From Candidatus Heimdallarchaeota archaeon (lineage in GTDB: Archaea > Asgardarchaeota > Heimdallarchaeia > JABLTI01), in NCBI GenBank assembly GCA_019056785.1, contig DXJV01000100.1, positions 10,796 through 74,795 of the forward strand: 64,000 nucleotides of DNA, in the 5' to 3' direction. Both the position numbers and the translations under genes were made by a program. Positions 12,454 through 63,525 of this stretch are shown piece by piece. The notes under the pieces are model-generated. The model was not told the DNA's origin, ran no database searches, and saw only the letters and a list, made by a program, of their open reading frames with translations. Every line of letters starts with the position of its first letter. Position 1 is the stretch's first letter.

Positions 12454-13320
12454 TTATTTCTTGGAAATCCGAACGTCCAACACGATATGCTCTATCCCAG
12501 GGGCATATTTTTTCACTATTCGCCGAGAAAGAATAGTAACAGCAGCCTTTTCCAGCATTGCAGCATTGTGAATACGATTAATAGGCCGTTGTACGGCAGT
12601 AGCTTTGTTAGGAACAGCTTCATGATAATGAATTATTCCCCCATCCCTACAAAGGCGGATCGCCAAGCGTATTTGTTCCTCGCTCGAGAACAAATAACCT
12701 ACAAGAACGCGATCGGCAACATCTCTATATCGTGGAAGGGTTGTGCAATTGTCGCCAAAGACAGGTTCAACAATACTTTCTACTTTATTTAATTGGATAT
12801 TCTCTTGTAAATAGTGAAATGCCAGAGGATTAATTTCTGCTGCAATGAGTTTTTTAGGCGAGTTATTTACCGCTAAGGGGAGAGAGAGATTACCAACACA
12901 ACTGAACATATCAATGATAATCTCACCGGGCGAAGTTATTTGCACCAGTCGGGTTCGTTCACCATGATTCCCAGGCGAGAACGTTAATTTAGCGGCATCA
13001 AGTTTGAATAAACAGCCAAGCTCCTTATGTATGGTTTCAGTATTAGGATCGCCCGCGAGTAAGTGGTATTGCGGTTCGCGAATGATGGCTGTTGTAGGAC
13101 CGATCTTTCCAAGAACAGAGCGAACAGGTTTAGAAAGGACTTGCAAAAATGCCTTACCGATGATTTCACCATAGGGAATTAATTCTCGAGGCAAAGAAAA
13201 AAGTACAATGTCACCTAAAAACCACCATCTTTTTGGCAAAGACTCGAGTAACTGCTCTGGAATATGAGGGGCTAAAAAGCTTTTTAGTTGAATTATTGTG
13301 GCATTATTCGCTTTCGTCAA
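12454..13320 (-). CDS. Trm5/Tyw2 (Met-10+) family SAM-dependent tRNA-modifying enzyme
   Basis: ETIHKE, FSPGNHGER, DMFSCVGN, EINP, DRVLVGY, KKYAPG. Confidence 0.88.
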   Translation of the reverse strand: MTKANNATIIQLKSFLAPHIPEQLLESLPKRWWFLGDIVLFSLPRELIPYGEIIGKAFLQVLSKPVRSVLGKIGPTTAIIREPQYHLLAGDPNTETIHKELGCLFKLDAAKLTFSPGNHGERTRLVQITSPGEIIIDMFSCVGNLSLPLAVNNSPKKLIAAEINPLAFHYLQENIQLNKVESIVEPVFGDNCTTLPRYRDVADRVLVGYLFSSEEQIRLAIRLCRDGGIIHYHEAVPNKATAVQRPINRIHNAAMLEKAAVTILSRRIVKKYAPGIEHIVLDVRISKK

Positions 13321-13819
13321 CGTTCTTCCTCAGAAAATCCGCAAGTAATTTGCTCAGAAAGGTAACGCTTTCTTTTACCTTAGGAGTCATTTCTTCAAGA
13401 TAACTTAAGGACTGGGGTTCAATGCCGATGAAGAAGGCTTTAAGATGTTTGAGGAAATGGCGAAGATATTTAAGATACATCTTCATGGATGTTTTATGCG
13501 GGGTGATCATAAACGCGTCATCAATATCTTTCTCTGTAAAGACGCGGATGGTTCCAGGAGATTCACCCATATTTGCGGCGTCGATAATAATTAAATAATC
13601 CGGGCGTTCTTTTTTTATAACACCGGTGAAGGCTTCAGGAACAGGACCGCTATTTAAGATAACAATGTTCTTCGGGAAAGAATAATTTTGTAACTCGTCC
13701 AGGACAGCCCCCCCAACGTAATCATCGGAACGGTCAAAGTTTCCAATGCCAAGAAGGCAAATTTTTTTCTCAAGGTTGATTTTCTTCAACTTTTTCCAAT
13801 TTATAACTTTTTGTGGCAT
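13304..13819 (-). CDS. hycI: Hydrogenase maturation protease (HycI-like)
   Basis: LGIGN..RSDD..G, GPVPE, IIDAA, TPH, GIEP. Confidence 0.85.
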   Translation of the reverse strand: MPQKVINWKKLKKINLEKKICLLGIGNFDRSDDYVGGAVLDELQNYSFPKNIVILNSGPVPEAFTGVIKKERPDYLIIIDAANMGESPGTIRVFTEKDIDDAFMITPHKTSMKMYLKYLRHFLKHLKAFFIGIEPQSLSYLEEMTPKVKESVTFLSKLLADFLRKNVDESE

Positions 13820-13852
13820 TTACAACACCTGAAATAAAAGGGGGAATCTAAG

Positions 13853-15439
13853 TCATAGGAATTTTGGCCCTTCAGGGAGCTTATCAATGTATTTCAGAAC
13901 TTTGCTAGGCCAAGCATCGACTTTTGTTCCCTTTTGAGCGACAAAAGCTGAAATATATCGTTCAAAACTACCACCGCCACAACCTGACCAAACCTCTTTG
14001 CCTGATTGCGATTTCACAGTAAAGCTTTTTGGATATTTCTGACCGATTATTGAAACATTCTGTGTCTCCAACCAATGGCTGGTTTCACGCATGCCACGAT
14101 AAGGCATATAGACTTCAAAATCGATTGTACCTACTCTGTCAAATGTTTGGAGGGTGACTTGCTCCTCTTCAGTGTCAGCAACACCTTCTTGGCTGGTCCA
14201 CCAAGGAGTAACCCATGCTTCCTGGAATTCTAGGTCAAGTATCTCCCCCAGAATCTTACGAAAACGGAGACGCAATTTTTGAGCAATGGTTTTAATTTGC
14301 TCCGGAAAACCAATGTAAAGTGTCTCGATACGATGTAACTCATCTACACGTTCAAACCCATGTGCAGCCCCACTTTCGTAGCGGTAAGTTGGCCCGGACC
14401 AATCGTAAACGAAAATGGGAAAACTATCATCAGCAATGGTTTTGCCTTGGAGGTAGATCCAAAACGGTGGGCACTGAGCGAAACTTAATCCGCCTATTGG
14501 AGGGCGAAGTTTCTCCATAATCTTCTCGGGTTCAACTTCGAGGGTAATGCGGTAATAATCTGCAATTTCTTCCCAAAACTCAGGGTCGGCGGTTTTCGGT
14601 GTGCAAACAAAGTACGGTTCAAAACCCCCTTGGTAAATGCCAGAAAGATGCCCACTTCGTTTCCAAATATCCCATGGAACAACCTTTGGAAAGATCATAT
14701 TCTTAAAACTTAGGGGCTTATAGAGATGTTCAATCATAATTTGTTTTAAGGCTTCTGCTAAAGCAGTTATTTGTGGGCCAAAAATCCATTGGTTACGATA
14801 ACCGGTTCTTTGGATCCAACCCTCTTTTATCATTAACTCCGTAGGATTATCTGTGCAACGAATCTCCTTTTTGGGGGAGCTCCAAATAACAAGATGGTGT
14901 TCATCCTTCCCACGAATCATTTCCTCAATAACTTTGTTTCTAACCAACTTTACTAATCTATCAATAGCGCCTTTTTCAATAAAGTCTATTGGGATGTTCT
15001 TTTGAAGGGTGACCGTAGCAGATGTATCTGAAAATTTAATGGAGGAAACAAAAGGAAGAGAGAATTCTTTCATGGGCCGGCGGGGGATATCAACATCGAT
15101 TTTATAAGATTTAATGACAATACCACTTATCCCAAGACGAAATTCACGGCCCAGTTTTTGGCTGAAAAATTTGCGCATTCGTAAAAGAGCATGATGGGGG
15201 GGCAAAATGCCACCACTAGTCATTGTAAACTGGAGCTCATCCTCTTTCTCAGAACGAGAAACAACAGACCATTTTGTGACCCGAGAAATTTCAGGGAGAT
15301 CTTTCTTTTTAATTCCTTTCTCGAGTAAAGCTTGCAATTCAGTAAGCCACTGGTCGATTAAACTCTTGGCGGTTGCAGGAAGCTTTCCCCGGATAATAAA
15401 ACTAAATTTGAGATGATACCGCATTGATTTGTTCCTCAA
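13853..15439 (-). CDS. serS: Seryl-tRNA synthetase, methanogen-type (type 2, Zn-dependent)
   Basis: AQCPPFW, RYESG..GFERVDELHRIE, WSGCGG; N-terminal domain lacks the bacterial-type coiled coil. Confidence 0.88.
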   Translation of the reverse strand: MRNKSMRYHLKFSFIIRGKLPATAKSLIDQWLTELQALLEKGIKKKDLPEISRVTKWSVVSRSEKEDELQFTMTSGGILPPHHALLRMRKFFSQKLGREFRLGISGIVIKSYKIDVDIPRRPMKEFSLPFVSSIKFSDTSATVTLQKNIPIDFIEKGAIDRLVKLVRNKVIEEMIRGKDEHHLVIWSSPKKEIRCTDNPTELMIKEGWIQRTGYRNQWIFGPQITALAEALKQIMIEHLYKPLSFKNMIFPKVVPWDIWKRSGHLSGIYQGGFEPYFVCTPKTADPEFWEEIADYYRITLEVEPEKIMEKLRPPIGGLSFAQCPPFWIYLQGKTIADDSFPIFVYDWSGPTYRYESGAAHGFERVDELHRIETLYIGFPEQIKTIAQKLRLRFRKILGEILDLEFQEAWVTPWWTSQEGVADTEEEQVTLQTFDRVGTIDFEVYMPYRGMRETSHWLETQNVSIIGQKYPKSFTVKSQSGKEVWSGCGGGSFERYISAFVAQKGTKVDAWPSKVLKYIDKLPEGPKFL

Positions 15440-38192: not shown

Positions 38193-38360
38193 TCATTTAT
38201 TATTCATTTTTTTACAAATAAAGGAACTGTTTTCATAGGTGATGCCTATCGTATCGCCTTTTTTAATTCCCATCGCATTTACTATCTCAATTGGTATGGA
38301 GAGTTTGTATACTCCTGCATTATAAATTACTTTTCGTTCAAAAACTATTTTTCCTGACAT
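38193..38360 (-). CDS. AbrB/MazE/SpoVT-family DNA-binding protein, 55 aa (not in ORF track)
   Basis: MSGKIVFERKVIYNAGVYKLSIPIEIVNAMGIKKGDTIGITYENSSFICKKMNNK. Confidence 0.85.
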   Translation of the reverse strand: MSGKIVFERKVIYNAGVYKLSIPIEIVNAMGIKKGDTIGITYENSSFICKKMNNK

Positions 38361-55933: not shown

Positions 55934-56010
55934 TGGCAGGCGTGAGGGGATTTGAACCCCTGGCCACTTAGTTAAAAGCCAAGTGCTCTACCTAGCTGAG
56001 CTACACGCCT
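55934..56010 (-). tRNA. tRNA-Lys(UUU), intronless, CCA encoded
   Basis: AGGCGTG/CACGCCT acceptor stem, CTTGG-CT-TTT-AA-CTAAG anticodon arm, AGGGG-TTCAAAT-CCCCT T-arm. Confidence 0.96.
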
Positions 56011-60671: not shown

Positions 60672-61010
60672 ATGGAATTCTGCGACGAATGCGGCGCAAT
60701 GCTCACCCCCAAAAAAATAGACGGAAAAGTAATGATGGTCTGCCCAAAGTGCGGCGAAAAGAAAAAAGAACTGACAAAAGAAGAACAAATAGTAAAGGAA
60801 AAAGTAAAACATACAGAAAAAGAAAGTATGGTGGTCATAGAAAATCCAGAACAAATAAAAACAATGCCAACGAAAAAAATGCACTGCCCAAAATGCAAGT
60901 CAGTACAGGAAACGCAATATTGGACAGTGCAAACGCGAAGCGGGGATGAAGCGCCGACAAGATTCTATAGATGTACAAAGTGCAAAACGACATGGAGAGA
61001 ATATGACTAG
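60672..61010 (+). CDS. tfs: Transcription factor S (TFS/RpoM)
   Basis: FCDECG, CPKCG, CPKC..QTRSGDEAPT..CTKC..WREY. Confidence 0.96.
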   Translation: MEFCDECGAMLTPKKIDGKVMMVCPKCGEKKKELTKEEQIVKEKVKHTEKESMVVIENPEQIKTMPTKKMHCPKCKSVQETQYWTVQTRSGDEAPTRFYRCTKCKTTWREYD

Positions 61011-61016
61011 CTTTTA

Positions 61017-62069
61017 TCACCTAACAGCTTTTTTCTTGCTGTCCTTTCCCCGGCTATGTTCCGAGCCTTCTCGGTCCTCGAGTTGGTTGGGCTCTCTCGA
61101 GTCAGCATTGCTCATGCTCGGGGAATAGATGCATCTCAGCATCCTTAGCCTCTGAGTGTTTTCCCACTCTTTGCTTGGCCGTTGTTGAGATTTTTTTTCG
61201 TCAGCTAGTACTAGTTTTCCTTTTAAAAAGTCCCCTATTGCCAGGTTGACCATTAACAATAGGTGATTTCTCAATGATTTTCTCCCATAGCTCATCGATT
61301 CTACTATTCGTTTTAGTTCCTTTGAATGGTAAATGTAGTGATAAAGTTTGTATGCCGACTGTTGTTTTTCTTCTATTTCTTTTGCCAGTTTTTCAAAGTC
61401 AATTTTTCCGTTTTTATAGTCATATCGTTGAGCTACTTTCTTTGTTTTTCTCCTGCTTATGTAGGCAGCCATTTTATCATAGTATTTCACTCTGGAGAGG
61501 AGAGTATTTTCTTCTACCGGTTGCTCGTGGTGCCTTTGACATGCTACTCGTATTTCGGGGTCGTGGATGGTGACTTCAACATAGATCTTGCTAATATGTT
61601 TGGAGGTTTGCACAAAATCGTGTAACATTAAGGCACAAAGTAAACGCTGGAGTGCAAGGGGGTAGTTTGGCCCCAACCCCTTGCGTATTCTCAATTTCCT
61701 TTTTTTCACTCGCAGTTGTGTTTTTCCTTCCTCTTCTCTATAAGTCAACCATTGAATCTTCCCAAACCCTTCACAAGTACCTCTCCCTAGATAGTCTTTT
61801 AACAGATAGGTTTTAATGACCTCTCTTGCCCGTGTCTCGTTCCAGTCATAGCAAGTTATGCGAACGTAGCCTCGAAAACCTTTGAGCACTGTCGGCTCCC
61901 GACGCTCCCCCTTCACAAGCTTTCCGGGATAGCTTCGAAGTGGATATCTTTGCATATCATTTAAAGCCCTGAGCACTTTGATCCTCACCGGCCCTTTTTT
62001 CATCACTGGAGAGGAAGTAATAAGAGGCGTTAGTAATTTTCCCTCGAGAATATAGCGTTTCTTCACCAT
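61017..62069 (-). CDS. Cas5-like RAMP fused to Cas10-type HD nuclease domain
   Basis: YILEGKLLTPL, G-loop YLGRGTCEGFGKI; LMLHDF, H, RHH, YDKMAA, SLRNH. Confidence 0.75.
   Translation of the reverse strand: MVKKRYILEGKLLTPLITSSPVMKKGPVRIKVLRALNDMQRYPLRSYPGKLVKGERREPTVLKGFRGYVRITCYDWNETRAREVIKTYLLKDYLGRGTCEGFGKIQWLTYREEEGKTQLRVKKRKLRIRKGLGPNYPLALQRLLCALMLHDFVQTSKHISKIYVEVTIHDPEIRVACQRHHEQPVEENTLLSRVKYYDKMAAYISRRKTKKVAQRYDYKNGKIDFEKLAKEIEEKQQSAYKLYHYIYHSKELKRIVESMSYGRKSLRNHLLLMVNLAIGDFLKGKLVLADEKKSQQRPSKEWENTQRLRMLRCIYSPSMSNADSREPNQLEDREGSEHSRGKDSKKKAVR
61024..61169 (-). ncRNA. Candidate structured RNA overlapping the 3' end of the Cas5-HD gene
   Basis: Four-way junction: TTCCCCG/CGGGGAA closing three hairpins, plus two flanking hairpins; strand assumed from the operon. 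Confidence 0.55.
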
Positions 62070-62830
62070 GACTGTAATGCCTCCTCCATCTCACGCCAAA
62101 GGTTTTGGACCTTTGTTTCCTCTTGTACCTTCCCCTTTACGATGGTTCGCTCCAGCCTAACTTTTTGCAGCTGAATGTTCTCCAACACCAACTTTCCTGC
62201 GCCATTATTTCCTCCCCTCCCCCAACGCAATTCGGGCATATAGAGGATGCCCTTCAATAAAAAGCCCAACTCTTTTTTTGTCAACTTTCCTAATAACTCA
62301 ATGGTAAAAATTAACCGTCCGCCGATGTAACGATCCTTGAAATTCTGAATGCTCTTCTTTGTTTTATACATCAATGAAGTGCGGTTCTCAGTTCCAATAT
62401 GTATTTTCTGTGCATCCTCAAATGTGCCCTTCAAATTATCTGAAACAACGATCACCGAATCGAACCGTATGAGCGACTGCTTTTTTATGGAGCCCATGAT
62501 TTTATGTTTAATGCACTCGTTTTCCGGGAAACATGAGCCATTTGGATGAAATCCTTCAGGTAATAATCGCACACCTGCTTGTGTTTCTCTCTTATCCGAT
62601 GAATGACACACCTCTATGCCTTGCTGCTGTGCTAGCGCCATCATCGCGTGGTTTAACATCCCCCGTAACCCTTTAACCATGTATCTGCTCCCTGCTTTTC
62701 CTTCGGCTTGTTCATTATATGCTAACAACAAATTCGTTGTATTCCCTCCACGGATCACCCCATTTCCCGGCTTTGCTATTGGCGTTTTCGCCTGAATTTT
62801 TATTCGTTTAAAGGTTCGTGCAACGAGCAT
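62063..62830 (-). CDS. Cas7-like RAMP (Csm3 group) with Zn-finger-like insert
   Basis: IKIQAKTPI, KGLRGMLNH, C..H..C..CIKHKIMGS, ENR thumb, ELGFLL, G-loop WGRGGNNGAGKL; SD GGTGG. Confidence 0.82.
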   Translation of the reverse strand: MLVARTFKRIKIQAKTPIAKPGNGVIRGGNTTNLLLAYNEQAEGKAGSRYMVKGLRGMLNHAMMALAQQQGIEVCHSSDKRETQAGVRLLPEGFHPNGSCFPENECIKHKIMGSIKKQSLIRFDSVIVVSDNLKGTFEDAQKIHIGTENRTSLMYKTKKSIQNFKDRYIGGRLIFTIELLGKLTKKELGFLLKGILYMPELRWGRGGNNGAGKLVLENIQLQKVRLERTIVKGKVQEETKVQNLWREMEEALQSW

Positions 62831-62926
62831 TTTTACCCACCTTTTAGGATTTTTCCTATTTTATAGGCAATTCTATCGCAACCGTTATATTTAAAGATTT
62901 CCCATAAAATGGTAGAGTGTGGGATT

Positions 62927-63094
62927 ATGTCTAAAATTGCTATTCCGGTAGTTATTGACGCGCGATTTCGAATTGTCATTCCGAAAGAGATTCGGGAAGA
63001 AGTAGAAGGCTTGGAGCCTGGCGAGAAGTGGTTGTTAGAGTATGATCTTGCTGGGAGCGAAGAGCAGTTAATTCTCAGGCGGCTTCGCCGGTAA
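62927..63094 (+). CDS. AbrB/MazE/SpoVT-family DNA-binding protein
   Basis: VVIDARFRIVIPKEIREEVEGLEPGE. Confidence 0.85.
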   Translation: MSKIAIPVVIDARFRIVIPKEIREEVEGLEPGEKWLLEYDLAGSEEQLILRRLRR

Positions 63095-63351: not shown

Positions 63352-63525
63352 ATGGCAAAAATTATTTTTAAACGACAGGTAATTTTCAATAAAGGGTCAC
63401 TCCAGATGAACATTCCGAAAGAGATTGTTGAGGCGTTAGGGTTGGAAAAGGGGGATACGATAGGGATCACGTTGGAGGACGAGGGCTTTTATTGTAGAAA
63501 GCTAAAGCAAGGAGAGGAGGGGTAG
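63352..63525 (+). CDS. AbrB/MazE/SpoVT-family DNA-binding protein, 57 aa (not in ORF track)
   Basis: MAKIIFKRQVIFNKGSLQMNIPKEIVEALGLEKGDTIGITLEDEGFYCRKLKQGEEG. Confidence 0.85.
   Translation: MAKIIFKRQVIFNKGSLQMNIPKEIVEALGLEKGDTIGITLEDEGFYCRKLKQGEEG

Follow-up and report, generated by a model that had tools for sequence, protein, structure and literature searches.

Array-less CRISPR-like systems named ARAMP and HRAMP were reportedly set out by Makarova et al. in 2020 (CRISPR J). These systems of Asgard archaea and haloarchaea are described as CRISPR derivatives of enigmatic mechanism, because RAMP proteins normally need a CRISPR RNA (crRNA) and the loci have none. In published summaries, ARAMPs are Asgard array-less type III derivatives that combine strongly diverged Cas5 and Cas7 proteins with an added nuclease; the partners named there are Cas1, HNH and PD-(D/E)xK, a distinct Cas1 homologue is said to be in most ARAMPs, and these summaries mention no RNA (PMC8730458, PMC12669027). 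Here, we analysed a stretch of 64,000 nucleotides (nt) from Candidatus Heimdallarchaeota archaeon (the window), in which a gene for a RAMP protein with an HD domain (RAMP-HD, P0001) ends in a structured RNA of about 175 nt. An earlier note on this DNA had pointed to a multi-stem RNA in the 3′ tail of this gene and proposed it as a guide or scaffold RNA that could replace the missing CRISPR array. Several features that characterize ARAMP are found at this locus: the gene upstream of P0001 (P0002) encodes a diverged Cas7-like RAMP protein (PF03787), a nuclease is associated with it in the form of the HD domain, and the locus has neither an array nor adaptation genes. The RNA has a conserved structure on the gene strand, has been inherited together with the RAMP-HD gene even between deeply diverged lineages and marks the boundary of the cassette that carries both.

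Fold, covariation and distribution of the RNA

The stretch flagged in the earlier note falls within the last 50 codons of the P0001 open reading frame (ORF). The minimum free energy (MFE) fold of its minus strand, 61169–61024, has a value of −51.9 kcal/mol, compared with −34.5 ± 3.55 for 200 dinucleotide shuffles, none of which folds as well (z −4.90); the plus strand of the same stretch reaches a z of only −2.92. All of the stems that the note had named are present, and the minus-strand MFE fold reproduces them exactly. Its remark on base composition is borne out as well, with a G+C content of 0.56 at 61050–61149 and of 0.31–0.45 in the gene body. Comparison with relatives shows that the element is longer than the flagged stretch and extends over 61191–61017, with the following parts.

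61017..61191, minus strand: whole conserved structured RNA (covariance model R1: 192 bits, E 1.8e-40; model match 61007–61199)
61133..61191, minus strand: domain 1, long hairpin P1, in which AUCUCA-CAAC-GGCC pairs with GGCU-GAUG-UGAGAU; helices 90–99% paired
61154..61169, minus strand: apex hairpin of domain 1, GAGUG/CACUC, named in the earlier note and assessed here by per-copy folding z
61127..61144, minus strand: alternative hairpin GGAUGC/GCAUCU; 91.4% of cells paired, and present in the window MFE fold
61048..61124, minus strand: domain 2, extended rod closed by CCCCG/CGGGG, which is the 7-base-pair stem of the earlier note; rod helices 86–98% paired
61024..61042, minus strand: domain 3, small hairpin ACAGC/GCUGU; 5 of 5 pairs compensatory, 90.8% paired
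61017..61023, minus strand: conserved tail UAGGUGA, Shine–Dalgarno-like, with stops in two frames (from the alignments)
61017..62069, minus strand: RAMP-HD gene P0001, 350 codons as read; conserved folded protein to residue ~291–296 (~61195)

We compared the fold with two alignments, one made with MAFFT from 12 copies and not shaped by structure, and one of 35 distinct copies fitted to the covariance model, which leans to the model's own structure. In the MAFFT alignment, 91.7% of the cells pair when domain 2 is modelled as a rod, and 17 of the 39 pairs show compensatory changes, compared with 3–7 in slid controls. The corresponding values in the fitted alignment are 92.5% and 26 of 39 pairs, with compensatory changes in 156 cells; slid controls give 11–32 double-changed cells, and none of 500 shuffles reaches the rod model. 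The paired fraction in the slid controls is 27–41% of cells. By these measures, the element is an evolutionarily conserved structured RNA that stands above both the shuffled and the slid controls, and the proposal of a non-coding structured element overlapping the 3′ end of the effector gene is upheld by the compensatory changes in homologous loci.

The proposed multi-stem arrangement held in part. The 7-base-pair closing stem, ACAGC/GCTGT and GAGTG/CACTC are all backed by compensatory changes, but the three hairpins drawn inside the closing stem are less well kept than the rod helices. The multiloop pairs in 83% of the cells of the MAFFT alignment (68–75% for the three inner hairpins) and in 72.7% of those of the fitted alignment (63–73% for the inner hairpins). 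From the alignments, the conserved form of domain 2 is predicted to be one long rod, not three small hairpins, with compensatory changes at 15 of its 20 pairs in the fitted alignment. However, the three-hairpin form is more stable than the rod in the window copy (−30.5 versus −17.1 kcal/mol), in which domain 2 can also adopt it.

Domain 1 is present in every subfamily. P1 is kept in all copies, with 12–14 of 14 pairs in each but the C47 fragment (9 of 14), and 6 of its 14 pairs show compensatory changes in the fitted alignment; in the EF-2-site subfamily, GUUUCA/UGAAAC replaces AUCUCA/UGAGAU. The 5′ strand of P1 lies within the last conserved codons of the gene (ISxSA). The apex stem varies in sequence (ACGAG/CUCGU, GUAGA/UCUAC, AAGCA/UGCUU), and folding it copy by copy gives a mean z of −2.6 (n = 34), with z < −1.5 in 21 copies. 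The alternative hairpin GGAUGC/GCAUCU and the outer part of P1 are mutually exclusive. Since this hairpin is 91% paired and its basal pair covaries (AU 10, GC 10, GU 5), two conformers are possible; one of them uses codons of the gene end, and the alternation could couple folding to translation. The frequent G-U pairs, which would be A-C mismatches on the opposite strand, fit only the gene strand, to which the structure is therefore assigned. When a partner was sought for the loop of domain 2 (TTGGTTGGG), matches were at chance level, and the promoter and terminator scans used bacterial-type models, which are uninformative for an archaeon.

Searches of 83 Heimdallarchaeia genomes with nhmmer and then with covariance model R1 place the element at about 49 sites in 12 of them, nearly all in one family. 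There are up to 12 copies per genome; the source genome has six, some without the gene. A 21-nt core motif matched only Heimdall metagenome-assembled genomes (MAGs) among 185,579 species genomes (10 of 10 matches). In a clade of genus g16, at 34–39% protein identity, a homologous RNA lies wholly 3′ of the stop codon; 13 of its 22 predicted pairs are compensatory, and its tail differs (AUCCUUAAG). Loci L018 and L039, compared with a view to transfer between families, are 78% identical overall, with cassette and flank taken together. At gathering score, the sole Rfam 15 match in the window is a tRNA-Lys (55937–56010). A permissive Rfam scan of 60800–61400 gave only a chance match to snoZ278 (14.5 bits, E 4.8), and a scan of the variant loci returned no family. 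We found no description of this RNA in the literature searched and no relative of the RAMP-HD protein among IMG/VR viral contigs.

Constraint on the RNA and on the protein

P0001 has 82 homologues, most of which cover the first 80–85% of the query, and all of the named ones come from Heimdall or Asgard MAGs. It has no Pfam match of any kind. In the structure model, residues 1–291 are confident and residues 292–350 are disordered, with a pLDDT of about 29, in agreement with the earlier view of the last ~60 codons as an unstructured tail after the HD domain. Residues 137–289 superpose on the HD domain of Cas10/Csm1 (VIA-align, Z 8.5), and H150, D151, H158, H180 and H181 are invariant in this part. 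Residues 1–123 match chains of type III and type IV effector complexes and other RAMPs with Z values of 7–8, and Cas6 with a Z of about 6; in a Foldseek search of the PDB, RAMP matches were only weak (E > 0.001). The model indicates that P0001 combines a RAMP and an HD domain of the Cas10 type in one protein. Cas5 and Cas7 are not distinguishable for the modelled RAMP half, and 'Cas5-HD' seems a fair name.

The nearest relative is the syntenic locus L009, with a protein 92% identical to P0001. In L009 and in run X4, a 4-nt insertion is located just upstream of the structure, and the RNA differs at only 3 of ~175 bases. Because of the four extra bases, the L009 ORF reaches the structure in a different frame and ends within it. 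Public contigs carry both forms of this indel; among the public sequencing runs listed for this DNA, none was of RNA. Across the copies, the upstream ORF stops at scattered points: ahead of the RNA, within the first apex, the rod, the last hairpin or the tail, or beyond the RNA. In the window, the stop is the TGA of UAGGUGA, within the tail. The fold is kept by copies in which the ORF ends before the RNA or at its start (38 of 39 pairs in L042 and 36 of 39 in L047). The words DAEMH, MSNADSE and RRLGT recur in the protein alignment and are found in the window in different frames, as expected of a conserved nucleotide sequence that is read in whichever frame is open.

We consider it very improbable that the region is a mere disordered, translated C-terminal tail whose stems arise by chance or composition. 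The window ORF is open through the region, and 22 of 30 copies read domain 1 in a single frame through DAEMH, as such a tail would predict. Against this explanation are the compensatory changes at 26 of 39 pairs, the copies and the whole clade that have a stop codon upstream of the element, the frameshift polymorphism with an unchanged RNA, and the RNA-only copies without any gene. The earlier note had regarded conservation of the tail at the amino-acid level as a finding that would speak against an RNA. The tail is not kept as one protein, since its stops are scattered and the reading frame of the window is shifted from that of the nearest relative; however, the single frame of the 22 copies, together with apex length variants that mostly differ by multiples of three, suggests that part of the tail may be translated as well as structured.

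A separate observation concerns the middle of the RAMP-HD gene. At 61300–61950 of the window, 6–20% of the bases differ per 50-nt block between two strains whose RAMP gene, TFS gene (transcription factor S) and RNA are 98–100% identical. This divergence suggests diversifying selection or exchange with a paralogue.

The cassette and its host-gene junctions

As far as gene order indicates, the RNA is the last module of a mobile, multi-copy cassette composed of LAGLIDADG-HTH, AbrB, RAMP, RAMP-HD and RNA, followed by a host gene. The further parts in the window are as follows.

62063..62830, minus strand: Cas7-like RAMP gene P0002, 255 codons (Pfam RAMPs PF03787, 25 bits, cut-off 22.1)
62909..63094, plus strand: P0087, a small gene of AbrB/SpoVT type, divergent from the RAMP operon (PF04014, 20.1 bits; cut-off 24.7, not reached)
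63352..63525, plus strand: second AbrB/MazE-like gene, homologous to the MazE-like genes of L071, L076 and L078
63572..64000, plus strand: N-terminal part of a LAGLIDADG-HTH gene, inside which the contig ends (49% identical to P0088 residues 1–131)
60672..61010, plus strand: TFS, the host gene at the junction, convergent (TIGR01384, 88.8 bits)

P0001 lies downstream of P0002 and overlaps it by 7 nt, and the TFS stop codon is 6 nt from the RNA tail. Upstream of the RAMP operon and divergent from it are one or two AbrB/MazE-like genes and a LAGLIDADG-HTH gene of 520–550 residues, a layout that recurs in other loci and in the other copies of the source genome. The second AbrB/MazE-like gene of the window is the one kept in other cassettes, with matches to PF04014. 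Relatives of the LAGLIDADG-HTH protein match PF14528 (LAGLIDADG_3) at 27.2 and 34.1 bits (cut-off 22.5) and also carry an HTH; two LAGLIDADG motifs with their acidic residues are readable in P0088, ending in GDG and ADG. A combination of LAGLIDADG and RAMP genes in Asgard archaea was not found in the literature searched.

Parts of the cassette also occur in other settings. At ~38205–38351 of the window (C65:49000–49146), a homologue of the AbrB/MazE-like gene with 55% identity adjoins a tRNA-anchored double PD-(D/E)xK nuclease gene; thus, a second nuclease cassette uses the same kind of small regulator. Further LAGLIDADG-HTH paralogues are found in the source genome at C88:59383–60939 and C16:6217–9948, the latter a tandem pair. 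These two contigs gave no match to RAMP or RAMP-HD, and the paralogues may belong to cassettes with other cargo. In L076, a DUF4258-like and a YokU-like gene, a putative toxin–antitoxin pair, lie between the LAGLIDADG-HTH and MazE-like genes (13174–14371).

Copy after copy, the DNA directly 3′ of the RNA tail is the start of a housekeeping gene, a tRNA or the TFS stop codon. The host genes that start beyond the tail, often 8–10 nt after it, are ABCE1, the RFC small subunit, S19e, EF-2 and Rpb7. The tRNA flank was confirmed by ARAGORN and Rfam in L044 and L069 and assigned by eye in L042 and L062, and the TFS stop codon adjoins the tail in the window and in genome G081. Depending on the genome, the same site is full, holds a 3′ gene remnant with the RNA, or holds the RNA alone; among 29 copies, 12 have the full gene, about 10 a 5′-truncated gene and seven no gene. 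The TFS site is empty in five genomes of the genus, and in G081 it holds a degenerate RNA-only copy (44 bits, 30 of 39 pairs). In genus g16, the L7Ae site is empty in more than 15 genomes, which keep a TATA box followed by the L7Ae leader. Where this site is occupied, the RNA tail abuts the leader itself in two genomes and is joined ~40 nt further upstream in two others. Therefore, the junctions and the empty, full and RNA-only sites identify the RNA as the terminal piece of the cassette, always facing the host gene, and this holds in every copy with a readable flank.

A separate miniature inverted-repeat transposable element (MITE) was also considered for the gene-less copies and rejected, as they carry 3′ remnants of RAMP-HD and sit at the same kind of junction. 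A match to an unrelated MITE or insertion-sequence (IS) end elsewhere in the genome was what the earlier note had named as contrary evidence. The source genome does hold six copies, some of them gene-less, but they represent the same cassette end and not an unrelated element.

The terminal position could also reflect a feature of the DNA, namely a recombination or homing end that forms, for example, a single-strand structure during copying and is conserved as DNA. In line with this, the RNA forms the exact terminus of a multi-copy cassette, and the 5′-truncated copies that keep this end resemble conversion tracts begun at the host-gene side. Nevertheless, we regard this as distinctly improbable. 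There are many conserved G-U pairs, which on the other strand would be A-C mismatches, the element is part of the end of a transcribed gene, structured ends are not required by LAGLIDADG enzymes, and no matching structure turned up at the other end of the cassette, where none was sought.

In the main rival explanation, the RNA is a cis-acting mRNA element. It would serve as a 3′ stabiliser, a processing site or an insulator that separates the cassette transcript from the essential host gene; for a co-directional host gene, it would in addition be the new leader and supply the Shine–Dalgarno sequence. The tail reads AGGUGA or AGGAGA at 8–10 nt before the start codons of ABCE1, RFC, S19e and EF-2. 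In genomes G059 and G066, L7Ae must be read from the cassette, because the cassette is in place of the native TATA box. The genes are deleted and the RNA is spared at the Rpb7, RFC and ABCE1 sites, and the single convergent RNA-only copy, that of G081 at TFS, is the most degenerate of its kind. However, the RNA is also intact where no gene follows it, in the window, which is convergent with TFS (38 of 39 pairs), and in L044, which is convergent with tRNA-Gly (36 of 39). In addition, the g16 tail is not Shine–Dalgarno-like, the long invariant blocks within the helices suggest recognition by a specific protein, and three domains over 175 nt are elaborate for a stabiliser. Weighing both sides, we consider a cis-acting role rather unlikely, although it is an explanation to be taken seriously.

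Further observations concern the host genes themselves. At the Rpb7 site (L047, L061, L054, L064 and L049), an ATG is lacking where the Rpb7 frame should begin; the frame seems to open with ATT, or with a TTG within the last hairpin of the RNA, as though the original start region had been replaced by the insertion. The tRNA genes at the cassette end in L069 (1687–1820) and L076 (16558–16700) are unusually long, at ~134 nt, and were missed by ARAGORN, which suggests that they contain introns. In all g16 genomes (L092–L108), L7Ae is preceded, ~90 nt upstream of its start, by a leader that is strongly conserved (CCCGACCAAGGAUUGGGUAUGA ... GACCCUGGAGGUCG) and that has a ~70-nt insertion inside it in one subgroup. 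This leader is probably the L7Ae protein's own regulatory binding site.

Possible protein partners and comparison with known systems

The window contains no direct repeat–spacer array, and the RNA is single-copy per locus, unlike the repeats of an array. The earlier note's 'missing CRISPR array' holds only locally, because ordinary arrays are present on three other contigs of the source genome (C30:20578–20771, C68:18–9055 and C98:145317–145669), mostly at contig ends. They have two repeat types, of 37 nt ending in ATTGAAAT and of 30 nt ending in GTTGAAAT. The RNA shows no likeness to these repeats, and the repeat ends AUUGAAAU and GUUGAAAU are absent from it. The Pfam models of Cas1 (PF01867) and Cas6 have no match in the source MAG, which is 82.5% complete; a very diverged Cas1 could escape these models, and the contig ends within the cassette.

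The reading that we tentatively prefer, at somewhat less than an even chance, is that the RNA is a fixed RNA subunit of the RAMP proteins of the cassette. The RNA would be transcribed as a 3′ extension of the RAMP/RAMP-HD mRNA. The transcript would fold into two long hairpins and a short hairpin, followed by a fixed tail of 7–8 nt that recalls the 3′ part of a CRISPR repeat. The Cas7-like and Cas5-like-HD proteins would then assemble on it, so that the RNA acts as a crRNA surrogate for the array-less system. Judged by sequence comparison, it is the best candidate yet for the RNA partner of array-less RAMP systems.

Several points weigh against this reading. The RNA offers little single-stranded sequence for a Cas7 filament. 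It contains no variable guide-like segment; the earlier note had suggested looking for such a segment beside a conserved scaffold, and the variable parts proved to be paired stems. The ordinary CRISPR arrays of the source genome could supply crRNAs. The fold is no less well kept in RNA-only and gene-truncated copies than in gene-linked ones, and many of the gene-less or truncated copies lie just upstream of a host start codon with their Shine–Dalgarno-like tail, which fits a cis role. The lean of the fitted alignment to its own model also has to be counted here, and so have the shared frame and the triplet steps described above, which may reflect some protein-level constraint on domain 1.

Alternatively, the RNA could be a guide of the omega-RNA kind, in which transcription continues past the tail into the host flank and the flank guides the RAMP effector, for instance in cutting empty alleles and copying the cassette in. 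In its favour, the RNA is always at the host-facing end of the cassette, with the junction within a few bases of the conserved tail, occupied and empty sites coexist, and a hairpin followed by a fixed 7–8-nt tail is arranged like a CRISPR repeat's 3′ part and its tag. However, the orientation of the flank relative to the host gene, sense or antisense, varies between copies, insertions at the L7Ae site are ~40 nt apart, the LAGLIDADG nuclease of the cassette could already perform homing, and the RNA is unlike the CRISPR repeats of its own genome. We therefore judge a flank guide improbable. Stated as RNA-guided homing, which we hold to be equally doubtful, the terminal RNA would be a single 'repeat' and the adjoining host gene its 'spacer', and the read-through RNA would load the Cas7-like/Cas5-HD complex. 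The complex would recognise the same conserved gene in cassette-free genomes, where, as when type III systems tell self from non-self, the neighbour of the target mismatches the fixed tail. A cut by the HD domain or by the LAGLIDADG enzyme would follow, and repair would copy the cassette in. If true, this would be a RAMP-based counterpart of element maintenance by TnpB and omega-RNA and of the homing spacers in CRISPR-associated transposons.

Returning to the RNA as a possible subunit of the RAMP proteins, we compared it with the RNAs of known systems. It resembles the omega-RNA (or reRNA) of TnpB and IscB (OMEGA, IS200/IS605) in being a structured scaffold that overlaps the 3′ end of an effector gene at the very end of a mobile unit, beside host DNA, and in being multi-copy with gene-less copies. 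The analogy drawn in the earlier note stands for this position but does not extend to a guide inside the RNA, which contains no guide-like variable segment. The overlapped gene also differs: it is not a TnpB, IscB or IsrB gene but encodes a RAMP with a Cas10-type HD domain, which belongs to a RAMP pair and not to a RuvC nuclease. TnpA and IS ends are absent, and no known sequence or structure matching this RNA was found (no Rfam match). Compared with the crRNA and CRISPR repeat of type III systems (Csm/Cmr), the partner proteins here are of kinds that assemble on crRNA, and the terminal hairpin with its fixed 7–8-nt tail recalls the repeat hairpin with its 8-nt tag. In contrast, the RNA here is ~175 nt long, mostly double-stranded and single-copy, without an array.

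The cassette also shares features with free-standing homing-endonuclease cassettes, namely a two-motif LAGLIDADG gene, insertion beside highly conserved genes and tRNAs, and presence/absence polymorphism among close relatives. It differs from them in its CRISPR-derived effector pair and in the structured RNA at the target-facing end; cleavage and homing are putative activities here. A multi-copy cassette that bears a LAGLIDADG gene, sits at the exact borders of essential genes and tRNAs and always has the RNA on the host side is new relative to the literature searched.

Lastly, the cassette resembles ARAMP and HRAMP as they are summarised in being Asgard-specific, array-less and built on diverged, type III-derived RAMPs with a nuclease. 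The partners differ from those named in the ARAMP summaries and consist of the HD fusion, an AbrB-like gene and a LAGLIDADG-HTH gene. If the RNA does prove to be guided, the compact RNA–protein system might be repurposed. For the array-less systems, a covarying RNA joined to the effector gene provides a concrete candidate for the missing RNA, and it makes the question testable with two small proteins and one ~175-nt RNA.

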